The notes under the pieces: model-generated | What the model was told of the DNA's origin: nothing | What the model saw: the letters and a program-made list of their open reading frames with translations, nothing else | The model's database searches: none | In this document: positions 1,966 through 64,000 of the stretch, in pieces | Layout: each line of letters opens with the position of its first letter | Numbering within the stretch: position 1 is the first letter of the stretch | Translations under genes and position numbers: made by a program | Origin: an uncultured Christensenellaceae bacterium | GTDB taxonomy: Bacteria > Bacillota > Clostridia > Christensenellales > SZUA-584 | Length of the DNA: 64,000 bases | Assembly: GCA_964441275.1 (NCBI GenBank) | Contig: CAYTUG010000001.1 | Location: forward strand, 80,532 to 144,531 | Reading direction: 5' to 3'

Positions 1966-2079
1966 TCTAAATCTTCCCTTCTGCGGCCTGGCTATCATTC
2001 AAAATGAAACTGTATAAAATCTTATTTATTATACATTATATAGTGATAATTAACAAGGTTGTGACTTTGTAGGTTTCTA

Positions 2080-2101
2080 CGTTGTTCAAATGATCTGTTA
2101 C
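2080..2101. repeat. Solo copy of the end sequence of the decayed IS at 54.4 kb
   Basis: cgttgttcaaatgatctgttac (2080-2101) matches cgttgtcaaatgatctgttac (54375-54395) with a single 1-nt indel. The 54.4-kb copy lies just 3' of the transposase pseudogene stop. Similarity decays outside this ~22-30 bp core. Confidence 0.45.
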
Positions 2102-2902
2102 GCTTTGGATGAAGATAGCTACAAAAGCATCAACGTTTGGGTATATTTATTTCTGTTTCAGTTATGAGACTCCTATAATGTTTAGTCAAATGTCGGGAAA
2201 AATATTAGATGACAAAGTGTAAAGAAAGCTTTAGCAAGCCGCTTAACTTATTATTTTTACCTGAACGACATTCATATGAACATTTTAATTGTTCCCATGT
2301 AAATAGATAAACTATATTAAAAAAGTTGGGATAAATACAATTACCAGTAATAACAAGAATAAAAAATCATATTTTAATATATTTTTTGTGTTTAGGCTTA
2401 TCGATTTATGGTGATAAAATAAACAACGACTTTTGATTATTCACTGTTTATATATTTTACGTCTTGTAGAGAGAATAAAACATATATACATGATGATGTA
2501 ATCATGGCTTAGTCATTGTAGTTACCCAACAAGGAATTATCCGCTCTATTTTACTAATAGGCATAGGTCAATAAGAAAAGTCAATACAAAAAAAACGGCA
2601 TGTTGGAAAATGGAGGTATATATAAAAAAGGTAATCGTTTAGCCTGCGTAATGTTGACAATTTAATTAAAAGTATCTTAAATGATATAATAAATTGGCAG
2701 TAAGGCCAAGTTAAAATTAACTCAGCGATTAATTTCTAGTTTGGTTATTGGAATATCTAGAAACAACGAATATGTTATTGTTATACTAATAATATGCGAT
2801 ACTGCGGCCTTTGACGATACTTCAATTGCAAAAACGTCGTCTCGTGGCTAATAATCCAAAATTCCAATTTGAAAAAGGTTACTTAATACACAGGAGGAAG
2901 AT

Positions 2903-5143
2903 ATGTCAATATTTAAGAAACTTAGTACCGGCAATAAAATCGTGTTAGCTTTTTTGCTGATAATTATACTTTTCACAATCGTCGGTTTTGTCGGCGTCGG
3001 CAGTATAAGAAGCATACAAGAAAAAGATAACGCACTGTTTAACAATAACACTCTCGGAATCTCATATTGTGCAGATGCTGCATTAGCATATGAACATATG
3101 CGCTTTAATTTTCTTAGGCTTGGAGCGTCCAAAGATAAAGACGATAAATCCGAGTGCATAAGCAATATTGATAAAAACTTAGAACTAGTGGATTCCTCGC
3201 TAACTAAATATGAGCAAACTATTACTACTGATGAAAACCAAACATTATTTAATGGTCTGATGGAAGACTGGGAACAATATAAAAGTGCAGTTAAAACTTC
3301 AATCGGATATGCCAAGGATAATCTTGGTATTGATTTATCAATGTATACTTCAAATTTTATTCTTATTGGGAAGCGCGTTTTAAGCGATTCTATATACAGC
3401 CAGTTTGAATCATTGTTTACCTACAATAAGACCATGGCGCAACAAGTTAATAATCAGAATAGTGAAGACGGAAAAAGTGCATCTTCATTAATGACTGTTT
3501 TATTAGTAATTGGTACATTAATAGCGCTAACTCTGAGTATATTTTTCAGCAAATCCATAGGTAAAATGGCAAAAAGAACGTCTGTCCAGCTTGACAGTAT
3601 GGCAATGGGCGAAAGTATCGATAATCTTGATATTAATAAATTCAGCGGAGAATTTGTTAGTATTGCCGAAAACGTCAATGCTATGAGCGAGTCTTTAAAG
3701 CACATGGTTAAGGACGCTGATGCTTTAATAAAAGCAGGGCTTTCGGGCGAATTGTCAACACGGACAGACATATCGAAACACAACGGTACTTTCCGTGACA
3801 TTATTAATGGATTTAATGAATCACTTGATGCTTTTATTGCTCCAATTAACGAAACTGTTGCGGTCATTATCAATGAATTTCAAAAAGGCAATCTAAAAGC
3901 ATCCATTAGCGGAGAATACTTTGGAGATCACGCTAGTATAAAAAATGCTCTTAATGATACCATTTCCACCATCAGTAATTATATTAGCGAAATATCCGAC
4001 GTACTGTCAAAAGTAGCGCAAGGAGATCTCACTATCAAGATTGCTTCCGATTATCGCGGAGATTTCATTATTCTCAAAAATTCTATTAATAGTATTATCG
4101 ATTCGTACAATTCGCTTGTTTCCGACATATTAATTGCAGCTAAACAAGTGGCCGCAAATGCTCTTCAAGTTTCCAAGACAAGTCAAATCATTTCCTATGG
4201 TGCTACCGAACAGGCCAGCTCTTTAGAACAGCTTATATCTTCAATGTCGCAAATTGCCTCGCAAACAAAACAAAATGCTGAAGATGCTGTTACAACTAGT
4301 GATTTATCAATTGATTTTAAAAACAGCGCATTAGACGGGAACAGCAAAATGACAGAAATGCAAGACGCAATGAACGATATACGTTCCTCCTCTGAGAACA
4401 TTTCTAAAATAATAAAAGTTATCGATGACATAGCATTTCAAACAAATATACTTGCTTTAAATGCTTCTGTAGAAGCTGCGCGCGCCGGTATCCATGGCAA
4501 AGGTTTCGCTGTGGTTGCGGAAGAAGTACGCAGTCTTGCAGAACGCAGTGCAACAGCTGCTGACAAAACAACCGAACTTATTAAAAGCTCCGTAAATAAA
4601 GTAAAAACCGGGAATACTATAGCAAATGAAACCGCAATCGCATTAAGTAAAATAGTCGAAGGTTCTGAGGCTGCCGTTACCCTTGTCAGCGGAATTGCGA
4701 CTGCCTCTAACCAACAGGCAACAGCAATTGCTCAAATTAACAATGGAATTGAACAGCTGTCTGGAATAATACAAAGCAACTCAGCTTCTGCTCAAGAAAC
4801 GGCTGCCGCAGCAGAAGAGCTTTCCAGCCAAGCGCAAATGCTGCAAAGCATGGTTTTGCGTTTTAAACTAAAAGAAGCAAATGATACTGATATTATTTAT
4901 AATCAGAATGAAATAGAAACGATAACCGAGGAAACAAGAGAAAATGAGCATACTTTAACGAAGGATGACGCGGCGGGTAGTGGACATATTTGTGAGACTA
5001 CGGATAAATTAGAAGAAGGTGAAATTAACGATTCTATACAAAAACCGGTGTCAGATGAAGTTATAATAGCTGCCAATGGTTTAACAGATGTCAAGCCAAA
5101 TAAAAAAACTAACAAACGAAAAAATATAAAACAGATAAAATAA
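2903..5143 (+). CDS. Methyl-accepting chemotaxis protein (N-terminal sensor + TM, HAMP repeats, MA signalling domain)
   Basis: SD caggaggaag lies before the ATG. There is an N-terminal TM ([20 protein letters not shown]) and a second TM. The conserved signalling hairpin is present: [40 protein letters not shown]. The C-terminal tail is acidic then Lys-rich. Confidence 0.92.
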
Positions 5144-5371
5144 AATATGTAATTTAAGGGATACCGCAAAGGCTGGGCATAGTCATAAAGAGAATCAAAA
5201 ACGGTTTCACTAAAAACGAGCCTTTTATTCATTGACGATTACAAGCAACAGCTTAATGCCTGCTGATACCGTACGATACCCATGCACCCAGGCAATTCAT
5301 TTTACAACTTACCGCCTATTGTATACATTCTAAAGCATGTTTGATGTTACAATGTTTTAATAATATTAGCT

Positions 5372-5401
5372 TTGGCAAGTAAGACGCATCAATCATATAA
5401 T
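5372..5401 (+). promoter_or_regulatory. Sigma-A-like promoter (TTGGCA - 18 nt - TATAAT)
   Basis: TTGGCA is at 5372-5377 and TATAAT at 5396-5401, about 30 nt upstream of the ORF starting at 5430. Confidence 0.5.
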
Positions 5402-5429
5402 ATACTAAAAGAGTTTTTGCGGTGAAATA

Positions 5430-5693
5430 ATGAAAAATGTGAAAATGCTGCCCGTGCCGTGTTTCGATTTTGACAACAAGTTTGAAGTAGCGCAACCCCA
5501 AAATATAAATCAGTTAGCTTTCAGCCACGACACGGCGGTTTATAACGCCGCGGGCATCGCCAACGTTACAGATTGCGCAACTGCAAGGGCAAATGCTCTG
5601 TTTTCAGGATGCGCCGCTTTGTTTGCAAAACTTGCAAGCAACAGACGCGCTCGATACTTAAAGCCAAGCGGCAAGCCAAACAAACGCGTTTAG
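5430..5693 (+). CDS. Hypothetical small protein (87 aa)
   Basis: ORF in an intergenic gap directly downstream of a near-consensus promoter, with a weak SD (GGTGA). I recognise no motif. The sequence is Ala/Asn-rich with a basic C-terminus. Confidence 0.35.
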   Translation: MKNVKMLPVPCFDFDNKFEVAQPQNINQLAFSHDTAVYNAAGIANVTDCATARANALFSGCAALFAKLASNRRARYLKPSGKPNKRV

Positions 5694-58536: not shown

Positions 58537-58798
58537 AAATAAAAAACGCCCTGCCCTTGGGGCAAAAGACGCTGTCTTTCACGGTACCACCCAAATTAAT
58601 GCCAAGCTTTCGGCATCATCTTAAGCAGCACTGTAACGGGTGCAGTTCGTCTTCGCTTAAAAGCAAATATGCGTTGGGCGAAGAAGCGTTGGCAGGCGAT
58701 AGAGTAGCTGCAATATTGACAAGGCTTGCACCAAATCCCCGTTCGCTGTGCAGATAAATGCAGTATCCGTGTCCCGCGTTGTCGCTTGTTATTTACAT
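58537..58798 (-). ncRNA. T-box riboswitch leader of ileS
   Basis: The minus strand reads AATTTGGGTGGTACCGTG (58597-58580), the conserved T-box sequence. It is followed by a terminator, TGCCC-CAA-GGGCA extended by G-U pairs, plus UUUUUU (58571-58541). Upstream, the GGTGCAAGCC distal-loop-like element and a candidate AUC (Ile) specifier in CUCUAUCGCC (the 58695-58705 region) are present. Confidence 0.85.
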
Positions 58799-61702: not shown

Positions 61703-61740
61703 AAAAAAAGCCCCTTAAACACCTTTAAACTGGGCTTTTC
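61703..61740 (-). terminator. Intrinsic terminator after repeat copy A
   Basis: The minus strand reads AAAAGCCC(ag)TTTAAA-ggtg-TTTAAG-GGGC followed by TTTTTTT. Confidence 0.7.
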
Positions 61741-61743
61741 TTA

Positions 61744-61834
61744 TGGTCGGGGTGGTCGTAAAGGAACTACTAAGAAAACATGATTAAATAAAGGTTTTTT
61801 GATGGTCGATAGTAGCATTTAACTAAAAACAAAC
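61744..61834 (-). repeat. Copy A of a ~90-nt conserved element in the 3' UTR of an orphan gene
   Basis: By eye it is about 80 percent identical to 62761-62850. Shared blocks are tggtcggg(g)tggtcgtaaaggaac, aaaacatgattaaataaa, aatggtc(g)a(t)agtag(t/c)gcatttaac and aaaaca. It starts at the stop codon of the 61834-62586 gene and ends at a terminator. Confidence 0.8.
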
Positions 61835-62586
61835 TATCTAAACTCCCATTTCGATGCAAAATCCAAAACAACTCTTTTAGGTTCTTTCAGTAGTGTTTCT
61901 CTAATCGTTTTTATTTGAGTTTGGATTTCATTTTTCTTATTTTTTAGTATATCCATTTCGTGTAAGTCAGACATGCGTTTTGCATAATATTGTATGGATG
62001 GATTCACTGCATGACGATTTAATAAATGATAGTTCATATCTAGGAGCATTTTTATGTATATAAAATTGAGTTTGATTTCATTCTTGACCGTAATGTACGA
62101 TATATCTATTTGCTGCGAATAAATGGTTCCGTGTGTAAAACTGCACAAATCTCTCCATAGATTTTTCATTTCTTCTGAATTAGGTTTTCTTACTTCTCTA
62201 AATACTTCGGTGCGAAGACTTATGCTCTCCCCATTTTCCCATTTTCGTAACAAACCAATATCGTTTTTAATAGCTATGGTTTTTGAAATTATAAGAAATT
62301 CATATATATTCCTAAACAATATCCTGCCACCCCCGTAGAACCCTTGCAGAGTTAAATCTAGTGCTGAATACAGAGAAAGGAAGTTTTTAAATATTGCAGT
62401 GAATACCATAGAAGAATATTCGTCAGCGTCAACATAGGGATCGCTTTTTATAACTAATAAGTATAACTTCAGCAATTCCATCTGTGCGTTATAATTGTCC
62501 CTAATAATGATCAAATCTTCTGAATGCTTGGCTTCTATGATGCTTCGGTTTTCTTTTGCAGTATTATTGAATGTATCTGTAAACAT
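61834..62586 (-). CDS. Orphan protein, possibly AbiV/DUF5677-like (HEPN superfamily)
   Basis: AAAGGAG lies 5 nt before ATG 62586 (MFTDTFNNTAKEN). It is AT-rich. Motifs are GGGRILFRNIYEFLIISK and NLWRDLCSFTHGT (R-x6-H). The family assignment is from memory of the pattern, not from a search. Confidence 0.6.
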   Translation of the reverse strand: MFTDTFNNTAKENRSIIEAKHSEDLIIIRDNYNAQMELLKLYLLVIKSDPYVDADEYSSMVFTAIFKNFLSLYSALDLTLQGFYGGGRILFRNIYEFLIISKTIAIKNDIGLLRKWENGESISLRTEVFREVRKPNSEEMKNLWRDLCSFTHGTIYSQQIDISYITVKNEIKLNFIYIKMLLDMNYHLLNRHAVNPSIQYYAKRMSDLHEMDILKNKKNEIQTQIKTIRETLLKEPKRVVLDFASKWEFR

Positions 62587-62728
62587 AAAAACTCCTTTAT
62601 ATGGCGGTATATTCGACATAATCATAGCTCATATCATAATTATAGTACAAGTGAAAAAAAGTTCCTTTATGAACACCGCAACTCCGTTATTTAGCGTATA
62701 AAACCACTGCGAAAAACAGCTTAACAAA

Positions 62729-62757
62729 GCGAAAAAACGCACCTTAAGATGCGTTTT
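62729..62757 (-). terminator. Intrinsic terminator after repeat copy B
   Basis: The minus strand reads AAAACGCA-tcttaagg-TGCGTTTT followed by TTCG, giving a U-run of 6 including the stem end. Confidence 0.7.
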
Positions 62758-62760
62758 AGG

Positions 62761-62850
62761 TGGTCGGGTGGTCGTAAAGGAACATTAGCAAAAACATGAT
62801 TAAATAAATATTTTCTAATGGTCAGTAGTGGCATTTAACGGAAAACATAC
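62761..62850 (-). repeat. Copy B of the ~90-nt conserved 3' element
   Basis: See copy A. This copy lies 56 nt after the stop of the 62907-64000 gene and directly before a terminator. Confidence 0.8.
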
Positions 62851-62906: not shown

Positions 62907-64000
62907 TTAAAAGTATAATGCATCGCATATCCGTTCAAACTGATTTCCAATCTTTTTTAATTCTTCGACACCAAAACGAACATCTGCATATACCGATGCA
63001 AATTTCGTTATCCCTTTCTCTCTTAATCCTTTTTCAAATAATCGTACCCAATTAACATTCTCAGATATTATATACTCATCGCCAAGAAAGATAATTGTTA
63101 AACCATCGTGTTTTAAGATTTTTGGGAACCCTTTTGATTTTTCTTGCTGCAGCACCCCTATTCCAGAAAAAACCTTAATAGACGCTTGTCCCAAAATAAA
63201 CCTTTTAAGCATGTCCTCGCAAAAGAATCTAGATATTTCTTGATGCTCCATTGTTGCACCTATTAAATCGTCAGCATCCTTTAATTCAATGGCCTTTCCT
63301 TCAGCATCAAAATATTCGATTATTGCAATAGACCCTTGTTCGACTTTGTATTTTTTATTTAGCTCAAGACCTTCAACGCACTTCATAATAAAGTTTTCAT
63401 CGAATCTATGTAACATAAGTTTTTGTTGTATTCTTTCTTGGGCTTGTTTGCCGCTCTCCAATATTGGAAGAATCTCAAAATATTTCTCTTGTTGCTTTAA
63501 AAAATCAATCTCGGCTTTTTTCCAACCACCAAAATCATCAAGAAGTATGTCTCGATTAACAAAAACTTTTACTTTTGCTTTTTCATCCTCAGTAATAGAG
63601 CCTATTATTCGAGATATTGGAATATCACAATGTTGAGCGTAATTTCTAAGACGATATGTTATTCTATAACCGATGCAATTATCAAATTCATATGCTGTTG
63701 CGTCCTTACACTTTTTAATATATGTCTCATCTAATTTCCAATCTCGTTTAATATGCGTTGCCCAATGATCCAAAAAAACGCGAAAGGAGAAAAGATAATT
63801 CATTACAAGCCTGTTTATTTCTCCTCGCATTGAATTTAGAACGGCAATATTTTCACTTGTTAGCACACACATCATTTCTTCGAATGATTTATTTATTATA
63901 TCTGTTCTACCCATATCATAAATAAATTTCCCAAAACAAGAAGACAGTTCATTGAACTTCTCTACGTGTGCTTCAGTTGGCTCTTCCTCTAATATTTTAA
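62907..64000 (-). CDS. Orphan protein with a HEPN-type R-N-x3-H motif; 5' end probably outside the window
   Basis: The ORF track starts it at Met 63914, but the frame stays open for 28 more codons up to position 64000 (KILEEEPTEAHVEKFNELSSCFGKFIYD-MGRTD) and no SD precedes that Met. It contains ITYRLRNYAQHCDIP. It is AT-rich. Confidence 0.6.
   Translation of the reverse strand, partial: KILEEEPTEAHVEKFNELSSCFGKFIYDMGRTDIINKSFEEMMCVLTSENIAVLNSMRGEINRLVMNYLFSFRVFLDHWATHIKRDWKLDETYIKKCKDATAYEFDNCIGYRITYRLRNYAQHCDIPISRIIGSITEDEKAKVKVFVNRDILLDDFGGWKKAEIDFLKQQEKYFEILPILESGKQAQERIQQKLMLHRFDENFIMKCVEGLELNKKYKVEQGSIAIIEYFDAEGKAIELKDADDLIGATMEHQEISRFFCEDMLKRFILGQASIKVFSGIGVLQQEKSKGFPKILKHDGLTIIFLGDEYIISENVNWVRLFEKGLREKGITKFASVYADVRFGVEELKKIGNQFERICDALYF

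Follow-up and report, generated by a model that had tools for sequence, protein, structure and literature searches.

CIMEs have lost, or never had, their integration genes and keep attL and attR (Pavlovic et al. 2004; PMC5704250), and the accretion of ICEs and IMEs gives rise to tandem arrays with direct att repeats between the elements, often at the 3' ends of tRNA genes (PMC5704250). In Prochlorococcus, islands of the Tycheposon type adjoin tRNA genes and their elements are flanked by partial tRNA repeats; newcomers push older elements inward, and degenerate remnants are scattered together with partial tRNAs (bioRxiv 10.1101/2020.12.28.424599). In Dehalococcoides, acquired DNA is found at the 3' end of ssrA, a single-copy tRNA-like gene, and direct repeats of the ssrA end mark the boundaries of the islands (PMC3146451).

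The 64-kb stretch of DNA from an uncultured Bacillota bacterium that was analysed here (hereafter the window) contains two related elements of ~90 nt, copies A and B. Most probably (about 0.8), these are attR-type junctions of integrated mobile DNA, with cassettes accreted downstream of tRNA-Pro. They are read as attR-type because the element is a conserved arm ending in the 3' end of tRNA-Pro, and because an empty site and a direct-repeat geometry accompany it.

Integration at a 3' end and direct repeats at the boundaries are common to this locus and to the ssrA-specific islands, although the latter target tmRNA and carry recombinase genes, whereas the target here is tRNA-Pro (PMC3146451). 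With CIMEs (PMC5704250), the locus shares integrase-less modules and a tandem array separated by direct att repeats. Unlike CIMEs, the modules are tiny, measuring 0.9-2.5 kb with one to three genes, and each comes with a promoter of its own; their conserved arm belongs to a new family, and neither a donor ICE/IME nor an integrase was found. As in Tycheposon islands, the locus lies beside a tRNA gene and displays partial tRNA repeats and remnants. However, Tycheposons measure 10-20 kb and are defined by integrase and replication modules, whereas only cargo and att junctions are visible here, the repeat consists largely of arm from the element with no more than 10-11 nt contributed by the tRNA, and the host is an uncultured member of the Bacillota (Eubacteriales/Christensenellales-like).

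In integron cassettes, attC is cut between the G and the TT of R', and the array is headed by attI/intI. The present modules resemble integron arrays in carrying one gene, in their single orientation and in a terminal recombination site of ~60-130 nt with imperfect inverted repeats. That the element is itself an integron-type attC site, in a CALIN-like array recombined by an IntI integrase, would account for the occurrence of a ~90-nt, >80% identical element after each arrayed ORF, like the VCR-type attC of chromosomal integrons, and for the GTT/AAC motifs of its imperfect inverted repeats. This is nevertheless extremely improbable, as both strands read 5'-GTTAAAT...ATTTAA(T)C-3' where attC has the opposite order, RYYYAAC...GTTRRRY, conservation is located 3' of GTT and not 5', the cassettes have their own promoters, and the array is anchored to a tRNA end and not to attI/intI. 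Moreover, the site is split, with arm and box on one side and an inverted box on the other. The sequence examined, outside which the head of the array lies, showed no intI gene.

Copies of the element and their homologues

Copies A (61744-61834) and B (62761-62850) are homologous, with 82-83% identity and one 1-nt indel, and their similarity drops away at both flanks (MAFFT and repeat finder); the initial annotation had put their identity at about 80% with small indels, in good agreement. Each copy lies 3' of an unrelated minus-strand ORF and 5' of a differing hairpin and T-run terminator, so that the unlikeness of the genes before and the terminators behind, already noticed from the letters, is borne out by the alignment of the flanks. 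Both copies contain the GGTC motifs and the catgattaaataaa core as described, but homologues in other genomes keep only parts of them (alignment). A profile built from all copies and searched with nhmmer recovers the two window copies at E = 5e-23 and 2e-23 and no further copy in the 64-kb window. A third, truncated copy (C) is found 2.5 kb beyond the window end. Copies within the genome are ~18% divergent from one another; in the alignment, the 5' edge of the element is fixed and its 3' extent varies (75, 90 or ~200 nt).

Homologues are found in four other Bacillota MAGs and two metagenomes, seven further copies in other genomes showing 77-90% identity. A pattern scan of genomes returned 31 matches, 27 of them chance matches, and one of metagenomes a single real match. 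Plasmids and phages gave no blastn match, and two pattern scans of IMG/VR yielded chance matches only. It had been proposed that the element could be left over, as a neutral relic, from the local duplication of a gene with its terminator, and the presence of only two copies in 64 kb, 1 kb apart and in direct orientation, would agree with this. The seven copies in other genomes already refute it, as does the junction with a tRNA described below; in addition, the flanking genes and terminators are unrelated, the copies within the genome differ by ~18%, and the boundary of the element coincides with a tRNA end. The case of two copies devoid of any homologue, against which the copies were to be counted, is thus not the one observed, and local duplication is left with hardly any probability.

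The tRNA-Pro end and the empty site

The last 10-11 nt of the element (CACCC(C)GACCA here, CACCCAGACCA elsewhere) are the 3' end of a tRNA-Pro gene, and this core varies with the tRNA of the host, the window species having CCCCGACCA and the MAGs CCCAGACCA. A contig from another sample of the species of the window, L053, starts with CGCAGGTTCAAATCCTGT-CACCCCGACCA-TAAGAAAAGCCC..., namely a tRNA T-arm (GCAGGTTCAAATCCTGT) followed by CACCCCGACCA and by the flank present behind copy A. Its nucleotides 19-700 are 99.85% identical over 682 nt to positions 7155-7836 of L001, the 13.6-kb sequence that extends the locus. The homology begins at the first base of CACCCCGACCA, the 18 nt upstream being tRNA T-arm in one and element in the other. 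Because the T-arm and acceptor abut the flank of copy A, with homology starting at the first base of the core, L053 is, on this alignment, an empty site with its breakpoint exactly at the repeat. Positions 1-29 of L053 match the 3' tRNA-like end of a model of Rfam clan CL00001 (E = 0.0011, cut at the contig start). This tRNA is cut, with its anticodon outside the contig, and is probably tRNA-Pro, judging from its C1:G72/A73 acceptor end and by analogy with L025. No tRNA was detected in the window or in L001, which reaches 7.1 kb upstream of copy A, the attL end expected for the window strain (tRNA-Pro with the left end of the array) not appearing in this sequence, and neither tRNA-Pro nor the element was found upstream of the fumarase homologues (79-81% identity) of related species.

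Two MAGs display the other side of this arrangement. In L025, a full tRNA-Pro(GGG) gene (5344-5420) ends in CACCCAGACCAG, and the same 12-mer closes an element located on that strand 1.2 kb further downstream. Between tRNA and element are an XRE-family gene and another copy, which is degenerate, and the sequence right after the intact tRNA is without the inverted box. In L028, a 48-nt 3' fragment of tRNA-Pro (2803-2850) has 48/48 identity to nt 30-77 of the tRNA-Pro of L025, an inverted box follows 7 nt past it, and an element ending in CACCCAGACCA 1.7 kb downstream bounds a one-gene insert, with an 11-nt repeat at both the fragment and the element. Since a same-strand tRNA-Pro or fragment thereof lies 1.2-1.7 kb upstream of the element in both MAGs, the core is directly repeated on either side of a one-gene insert. 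L025, L028 and L035/L043 have about 110 nt in common after the core and nothing before the arm, which would fit one tRNA flank with different inserts. Overall, the direct-repeat geometry is shown in three genomes, where copies bound single-gene inserts. With the tRNA-Pro end and the conspecific empty site, this makes one of the suggestions of the initial annotation, a protein-binding or recombination site allowing the exchange of cassettes, essentially right.

Parts of the element and readings as RNA or coding sequence

The core of copy A, CACCCCGACCA (61744..61754, minus strand), corresponds to the acceptor 3' strand, A73 and CCA of the host tRNA(Pro), and is the predicted attR crossover or identity segment. 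It is overlapped by a 17-nt box, GTTCCTTTACGACCACC (61751..61767, minus strand; box scan and alignment). The consensus of the box family, GTTCCTTTAYGAACACC, contains a GTGTTC-N6-GAACAC dyad, and the box is a candidate core-type recombinase-binding site. On direct reading, the box of copy A also resembles a tRNA T-arm (GTTC..TT) in the same register. The conserved arm, TTTGTTTTTAGTTAAATGC...TTATTTAATCATG... (61768..61833, minus strand; alignment and profile), begins immediately past the stop codon of a 250-aa ORF and harbors an imperfect 43-bp dyad, GTTAAATGC-N5-CTGAC-C-GTCAG-N5-GC-TT-ATTTAATC. The blocks GTTAAATGCYACTA, TTATTTAATCRTG and TTCCTTT are invariant, and the arm may be a P-arm-like segment. 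Copy B exhibits the same order on the minus strand, with a core, CACCCGACCA, equal to the tRNA 3' end minus 1 nt (62761..62770), a box, GTTCCTTTACGACCACC (62767..62783; box scan), and a conserved arm (62784..62850; alignment and profile).

Regarding the terminators, the hairpin and T-run behind copy A (61703..61739, minus strand) were read directly from the sequence. Because the same sequence stands directly 3' of the tRNA end in the empty-site contig L053, they are taken to be native to the tRNA gene, as its terminator and its flank on the downstream side (B'), and to lie outside the cassette. Both terminators had been ascribed to the orphan genes; the copies do sit between ORF and terminator, but that of copy A is the tRNA gene's own. 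The terminator hairpin behind copy B (62734..62757, minus strand; terminator scan) may represent the left end (P' side) of the cassette that comes next, or else a tRNA flank that was carried over.

An inverted 17-nt box, GTTCCTTTATGAACACC (62661..62677, plus strand), matches the family consensus at 17/17 positions, with a chance expectation of about 1e-4, and probably marks the left end of the cassette of the 250-aa ORF. The site is not uniform in its fine structure, since in the window 89 nt separate the inverted box from core B and in L028 the box follows the tRNA-Pro fragment after about 7 nt. Pairs of box and inverted box, with at most 2 mismatches to the consensus, bound both the 250-aa module (62661-62677 and 61751-61767) and the mini-insert of L028 (2858-2874 and 4562-4578), and it could be hypothesized that the cassettes are non-autonomous transposons, MITE-like or Tn-like, having 17-bp terminal inverted repeats and a transposase preferring a tRNA end. 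This is improbable: no target-site duplication can be read beside the inverted repeats, what is directly repeated is the 11-12-nt tRNA end, a pattern of site-specific integration; the ends are very asymmetric, the 65-nt conserved arm occurring on one side only; copies A, C, L025 and L031 have no clear partner; and no transposase is found nearby.

Xer/dif-type sites, as in IMEX and pdif modules, span 28 bp and consist of a XerC arm, a 6-bp spacer and a XerD arm. This identity was discarded for the element, where only the XerD-arm-like TTTTNGTTAAAT is conserved and the preceding 17 nt, where spacer and XerC arm would have to lie, are different in each copy. GC skew is uninformative in this respect. 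Resemblances to a Tn3-family inverted repeat, a hix half-site and the pMV158 nick site were also considered, none of them being consistent across copies.

In A, B and L025, the element is within the transcript, between stop codon and terminator, and the CTGAC/GTCAG stem displays a few G-U-compatible changes on the sense strand. Both would suit a 3'-UTR-derived or processed small RNA acting with the upstream protein, as an RNA antitoxin or a substrate mimic. This reading is very unlikely. For the window and six loci, cmscan returned no Rfam family for the element at gathering score or at E <= 1; the minimum-free-energy z-scores of the window copies are +1.07 and -0.09, and those of all copies range from -2.0 to +1.7, none being significant. 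The conserved-structure check with RNAalifold gave 12 pairs, -2.9 kcal/mol and 1 compensatory pair, i.e., no conserved structure, and alignment folding and z-scores agree with the earlier remark that the CTACTA/TAGTAG and CATTAG/CTAATG pairings are without clean covariation. Furthermore, the element is missing beside homologues that are 70% and 61% identical to the 250-aa gene, in L035 a terminator is located immediately upstream of the element, and a small RNA would leave unexplained that the edge of the element is both the tRNA 3' end and the breakpoint of the empty site. Type III toxin-antitoxin systems comprise tandem RNA repeats of ~36 nt just upstream of the toxin gene, with a terminator between. 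In this locus a single ~90-nt copy lies downstream of each ORF, tandem repeats are absent, and the neighbouring proteins have no match to ToxN/AbiEii-type families.

Two peptides, GLGVxKGTxAKTRLNKRFLTVSSGI* on the antisense strand and the 20-aa MPLLTVRKRLFNRVFANVPL on the sense strand, looked conserved. They were rejected as coding because codon periodicity and a ribosome-binding site are lacking and in-frame stops occur: in the first 57 nt, the three codon positions have minor-allele counts of 17/27/19, with no three-base periodicity, A, B and L019 are interrupted by an in-frame TGA when read antisense, and the sense ATG is without a Shine-Dalgarno sequence. When the antisense peptide was searched against a database, a single ORF was the sole match. 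A tRNA-like or tmRNA-like fold of the whole element was likewise set aside, its acceptor pairing not being kept in L028, L035 and L025; ARAGORN and the tRNA covariance model were negative for a tRNA-like fold.

Cassettes, cargo and a putative recombinase

The 250-aa orphan ORF (61834..62586, minus strand) is the cargo of the last cassette; its start is supported by an RBS and it likely has its own promoter, with TATAAT at 62639-62644. In Pfam it has a DUF5677 match below threshold and nothing else. Homologues of the protein (46-70% identity) are found in other contexts without the element; those of L046-L051 have no element beside them, and the idea that element and gene move together was rejected on this ground. 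The 380-aa orphan ORF (62907..64000, minus strand), the cargo of the preceding cassette, extends 49 nt past the window end (gene call at 4860-6002 of L001) and has no Pfam or PADLOC match and one PHROG of unassigned function. The description of the neighbouring proteins as putative RNases finds no backing in these searches, which gave only the sub-threshold DUF5677 in Pfam, nothing in PADLOC and unknown-function families in PHROGs. Among cargo and context, IetAS, Abi_2, Fic, an Eco57I-type methylase remnant and PHROG families can be found, a content typical of defence or accessory islands. The GC content of the island is 33%, vs about 44% in the rest of the window.

With Pfam, PADLOC and PHROGs, the ORFs between or beside the copies in L001, L025 and L028 showed no recombinase domain, and the modules are therefore classed as integrase-less (CIME-like) and not autonomous. 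A crude, non-rigorous motif screen of the window ORFs showed no tyrosine-recombinase signatures. The sole recombinase-like gene nearby encodes a large serine recombinase in L044; a link with this lone example was dismissed, the gene being a 5'-truncated remnant.

The proposed junction comprises, in order, a ~65-nt family-conserved arm, the 17-nt dyad box and a 10-11-nt core equal to the tRNA-Pro 3' end. In the window strain, at least 7 kb of AT-rich foreign DNA would be inserted at the 3' end of tRNA-Pro, as small integrase-less modules with their own promoters, each ending in one junction (order C, B, A) and presumably stacked by tandem site-specific integration (accretion). Copy A would be the outermost junction, so that the native tRNA terminator and then the fumarase operon come behind it; internal junctions would be followed by the left end of the next module, bearing a terminator and an inverted box. 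Box and arm would be bound by a site-specific recombinase, most probably a tyrosine integrase whose gene lies elsewhere, which could excise or insert modules by recombining the direct repeats; this recombinase is hypothetical because no integrase was found beside any copy. A more ambitious and rather doubtful proposal is that Bacillota possess an integron-like cassette platform, with arms, boxes and cores as its functional recombination sites, where a recombinase acting in trans would insert, excise and shuffle individual single-gene cassettes, self-promoted and often of defence type, at the 3' end of tRNA-Pro, each cassette then carrying a ~100-bp site and a terminator that would restore termination of the tRNA. 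The contrasting reading is that the arrays are merely decayed remnants of larger islands.

The junctions thus appear to be a new sequence family of a known kind of genomic-island architecture and not a new regulatory RNA, a speculative reading being replaced by a concrete and testable architecture. They would place an insertion hot spot at tRNA-Pro in an uncultured Bacillota lineage of gut or digester type and define the cassette boundaries to the base. They also provide a signature, the arm GTTAAATGCYACTA...TTATTTAATCRTG...GTTCCTTTAYGAACACC and then the tRNA end, with which more cassettes and the recombinase may be sought. To our knowledge, classical integrons are essentially absent from Bacillota; if the cassettes are individually mobile, they would represent a tRNA-anchored functional analogue of integrons there.

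Distribution of the element

The repeat of about 90 nt at 61744-61834 (copy A) and 62761-62850 (copy B), claimed in the initial annotation, is borne out by alignment. The two copies share 82-83% identity with one single-base indel, and neither the coding sequences before them nor the hairpins after them can be aligned. The neighboring genes, both on the minus strand, are a 250-aa ORF (61834-62586), whose start has ribosome-binding site (RBS) support, and a 380-aa ORF (62907 onward) beginning beyond the window end. When the 64 kb were searched with a profile of all copies, A and B each scored E ~ 1e-23 and no third copy was found in the window. An exact look-up of the 250-aa protein led to a Logan contig of 13.6 kb (L001) that matches the end of the window exactly and reaches 4.9 kb further (window coordinate = 68909 - L001 coordinate). 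It carries copy C (L001 3509-3589), cut off after about 75 nt and devoid of the GACCA tail. A fourth junction, now fully decayed, may be represented by CCATCAAATACTCTTTATCTAATAC at L001 4740-4790 (equivalent to ~64120-64170, beyond the window end), a short stretch between the 156-aa and 380-aa genes with similarity to the center of copy A (blastn E = 0.06).

Scanning one genome per species for the pattern returned 31 matches, four of which are true homologues, found in three 'Bacillota bacterium' MAGs (L031, L028, and L025) and one Christensenella MAG (L019); the others are chance matches. A JGI metagenome scan added one further homologue (L035), the same copy being present in two longer contigs (L043 and L044), and no element was found in plasmid, phage and viral collections. 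Each matching species-representative genome holds a single pattern match, which points to an element that is rare and low in copy number, yet conserved across species. Its conservation of 77-90% between different species refutes the earlier suggestion of a local duplication relic.

RNA and coding readings

It had also been proposed that the repeat is a small RNA acting with the adjacent protein. This is unsupported: the element matches no Rfam family at the gathering score or at E <= 1, which speaks against an RNA of any of these families, and its folding energies are not better than those of shuffled sequence (z of +1.07 for A and -0.09 for B; overall range -2.0 to +1.7, either strand). With RNAalifold, 12 pairs are predicted (-2.9 kcal/mol) and a single compensatory change is seen. 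A type III antitoxin is contradicted by the absence of tandem repeats upstream of a toxin gene. Other contigs, without the element, encode proteins homologous to the 250-aa protein (70%, 61%, and 46% identity), homology stopping at the stop codon, which argues that the element is not a functional appendage of this gene. Elsewhere in the window, a T-box leader-like match lies upstream of ileS (58562-58791, minus strand; L001 10118-10347; 39.9 bits, E = 1.7e-5); with a score well under the Rfam gathering score of 93, it may be a divergent T-box.

Regarding coding capacity, open frames exist on both strands. The sense frame, starting at the invariant ATG within AAATGC, would give a 20-48-aa peptide; the antisense frame, which shares its wobble positions with the sense frame, is open too and was annotated as a 51-aa protein (P0001) by one gene caller. 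A coding remnant is nevertheless rejected, as substitutions per codon position (17/27/19) lack three-base periodicity, a TGA falls within the antisense frame in A, B, and L019, and no RBS precedes the sense ATG.

The tRNA-Pro end and the empty site

In L025, a tRNA-Pro(GGG) gene (5344-5420) ends in ...CTCTCACCCAGACCAG. On the same strand, 1.2 kb further downstream, the element terminates in ...GAACACCCAGACCAG, forming a 12-nt direct repeat with the tRNA end. A degenerate second copy lies between them, as does one XRE-family gene that has a promoter of its own. The degenerate copy (5561-5632; nhmmer E = 0.0012) is missing ~9 nt at the CTGACCGTC center and ends in CATCCAGACC. It follows the intact tRNA-Pro, at a distance of 140 nt, and the tRNA's terminator (5437-5468), which is perfectly palindromic over 16 bp. 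L028 carries at 2803-2850 a fragment of 48 nt identical to nt 30-77 of the L025 tRNA-Pro; it lies 1.7 kb upstream of the element on the same strand, and seven nucleotides after it the element's 17-nt box recurs in inverted form, GGTGTTCGTAAAGGAA. Immediately upstream of this fragment, an IetA/IetS defence pair occupies L028 1-2450 (PADLOC; IetA 5e-69, IetS/subtilase). A repeat of 48 nt that spans the tRNA from anticodon stem to 3' end is the hallmark of an integrase class different from the first and using the same tRNA. The L028 tRNA-Pro locus is therefore a defence island made up of multiple elements. In the window, copy A finishes with CACCCCGACCA and copy B with CACCCGACCA; these read as the 3' strand of the acceptor stem followed by A73 and CCA, from a tRNA with an expected 5' end of CGGGGTG. 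A C1:G72 pair together with A73 is typical of tRNA-Pro in bacteria.

Contigs of other samples were matched via an identical fumarase alpha subunit. One of them, L053 (sample SRR8925810), starts with CGCAGGTTCAAATCCTGT-CACCCCGACCA-TAAGAAAAGCCCAGTTTAAAGGTGTTTAAGGGGCTTTTTTT... and, beginning at the first C of CACCCCGACCA, matches the window strain at 99.85% identity through the terminator, a 450-nt spacer and the fumarase gene. Upstream of this C, L053 has a tRNA T-arm and the window has GTTCCTTTACGAC of the element. Positions 1-29 of L053 match the 3' tRNA-like end of a clan CL00001 model, cut by the contig start (cmscan, E = 0.0011). Together, the T-arm and this match place a tRNA gene directly before the fumarase region in the L053 strain. 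The window strain has gained an insertion of at least 7.1 kb of 33%-GC DNA (background about 44% GC) at the tRNA 3' end. Copy A is the distal (attR) junction, and the terminator behind it, previously assigned to an orphan gene, is the tRNA's own, being present in L053 after the tRNA. A second strain-variable breakpoint lies at window ~61598 (L001 7311), within the AT-rich pre-fumarase spacer and about 155 nt past the attR core: L054 and L055 (ERR13731142 and ERR13731073) match the window exactly from L001 7311 on, and their nt 1-26, TTTTGCGAACTTTATTATACGTTATC, are unrelated. Another AT-rich stretch (2001-4000; 32% vs about 44% GC), overlapping a 756-aa ORF (2873-5140), may be another horizontally acquired segment.

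Modules and their proposed growth

Read on the minus strand, the element comprises an arm, a box, and a core. The arm (~65 nt, fixed 5' edge TTTGTTTTYGTTAAATGC) holds an imperfect 43-bp dyad, GTTAAATGC-N5-CTGAC-C-GTCAG-N5-GC-TT-ATTTAATC, plus invariant blocks; the box (17 nt, GTTCCTTTAYGAACACC) is a GTGTTC-N6-GAACAC dyad resembling a tRNA T-arm and is overlapped by the core (10-11 nt of the tRNA end). The sequence beyond the core varies with position, namely the native tRNA flank after A and a terminator followed by an inverted box after B and C. The inverted box after B (62661-62677; 17/17 to the consensus) closely precedes the region that holds the promoter of the 250-aa gene. The 250-aa module (62677 to 61744, 934 bp) runs from inverted box through gene to arm-box-core, and the L028 insert (2858-4585) has the same layout. 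Core and inverted box are 7, ~40, and 89 nt apart in different copies, and the tRNA-side junction (attL) of L025 has no inverted box. A tail of ~110 nt after the core is common to L025, L028, and L035/L043, with a GCAGGC-AGW-GCCTGC hairpin, then a terminator with compensatory stem substitutions, then TTTTTTGTCCGCGC...TRTCAAC. We infer that it is their common tRNA-Pro downstream flank, because in L025 a recombination event between the 12-nt repeats would bring the tail directly behind the tRNA.

Among known sites, attC is contradicted by the reversed motif order and Xer/dif by a non-conserved XerC arm. The recombination-site alternative of the initial annotation was right, given the tRNA-end repeat identity, the empty site with its base-exact breakpoint, and, in L025, a complete tRNA gene at the opposite end. 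Insertion took place at the tRNA 3' end, which was duplicated in the process, and each tandem module is ended by a related junction. No integrase or other recombinase gene is present in any module, and for this reason the modules are placed with CIME-like, non-autonomous elements. The sole recombinase-like gene near any copy is a 5'-truncated remnant (L044 2-496, minus strand; L043 2-163) with a large-serine-recombinase 'Recombinase' domain (PF07508, 1.4e-16) and no N-terminal catalytic domain. It starts about 100 nt past the conserved tail and probably stems from some other mobile element, unrelated to the one described here. As far as searched, the sequence family has no earlier description; elements of this kind are well known.

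It can be hypothesized that a site-specific recombinase, most likely a tyrosine integrase, is encoded elsewhere or by a lost parent element, with box and inverted box as candidate core-type sites and the arm as putative accessory sites. Successive integrations at the att site would push older modules away from the tRNA, the left-end module terminators replacing the tRNA terminator, and direct-repeat recombination would delete or excise one or several modules. The 80-90% arm similarity across species would stem from constraint acting on attP in active elements rather than from selection on scars. Such stacking would be the same accretion/CIME scenario as is known for ICEs and IMEs at tRNA genes (PMC5704250), and would resemble the island growth described for tycheposons (bioRxiv 10.1101/2020.12.28.424599). 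The element is an example of conserved non-coding DNA mimicking small ORFs, and the modules that it ends may still be individually mobile, as in an integron-like platform, or may be decayed remnants.
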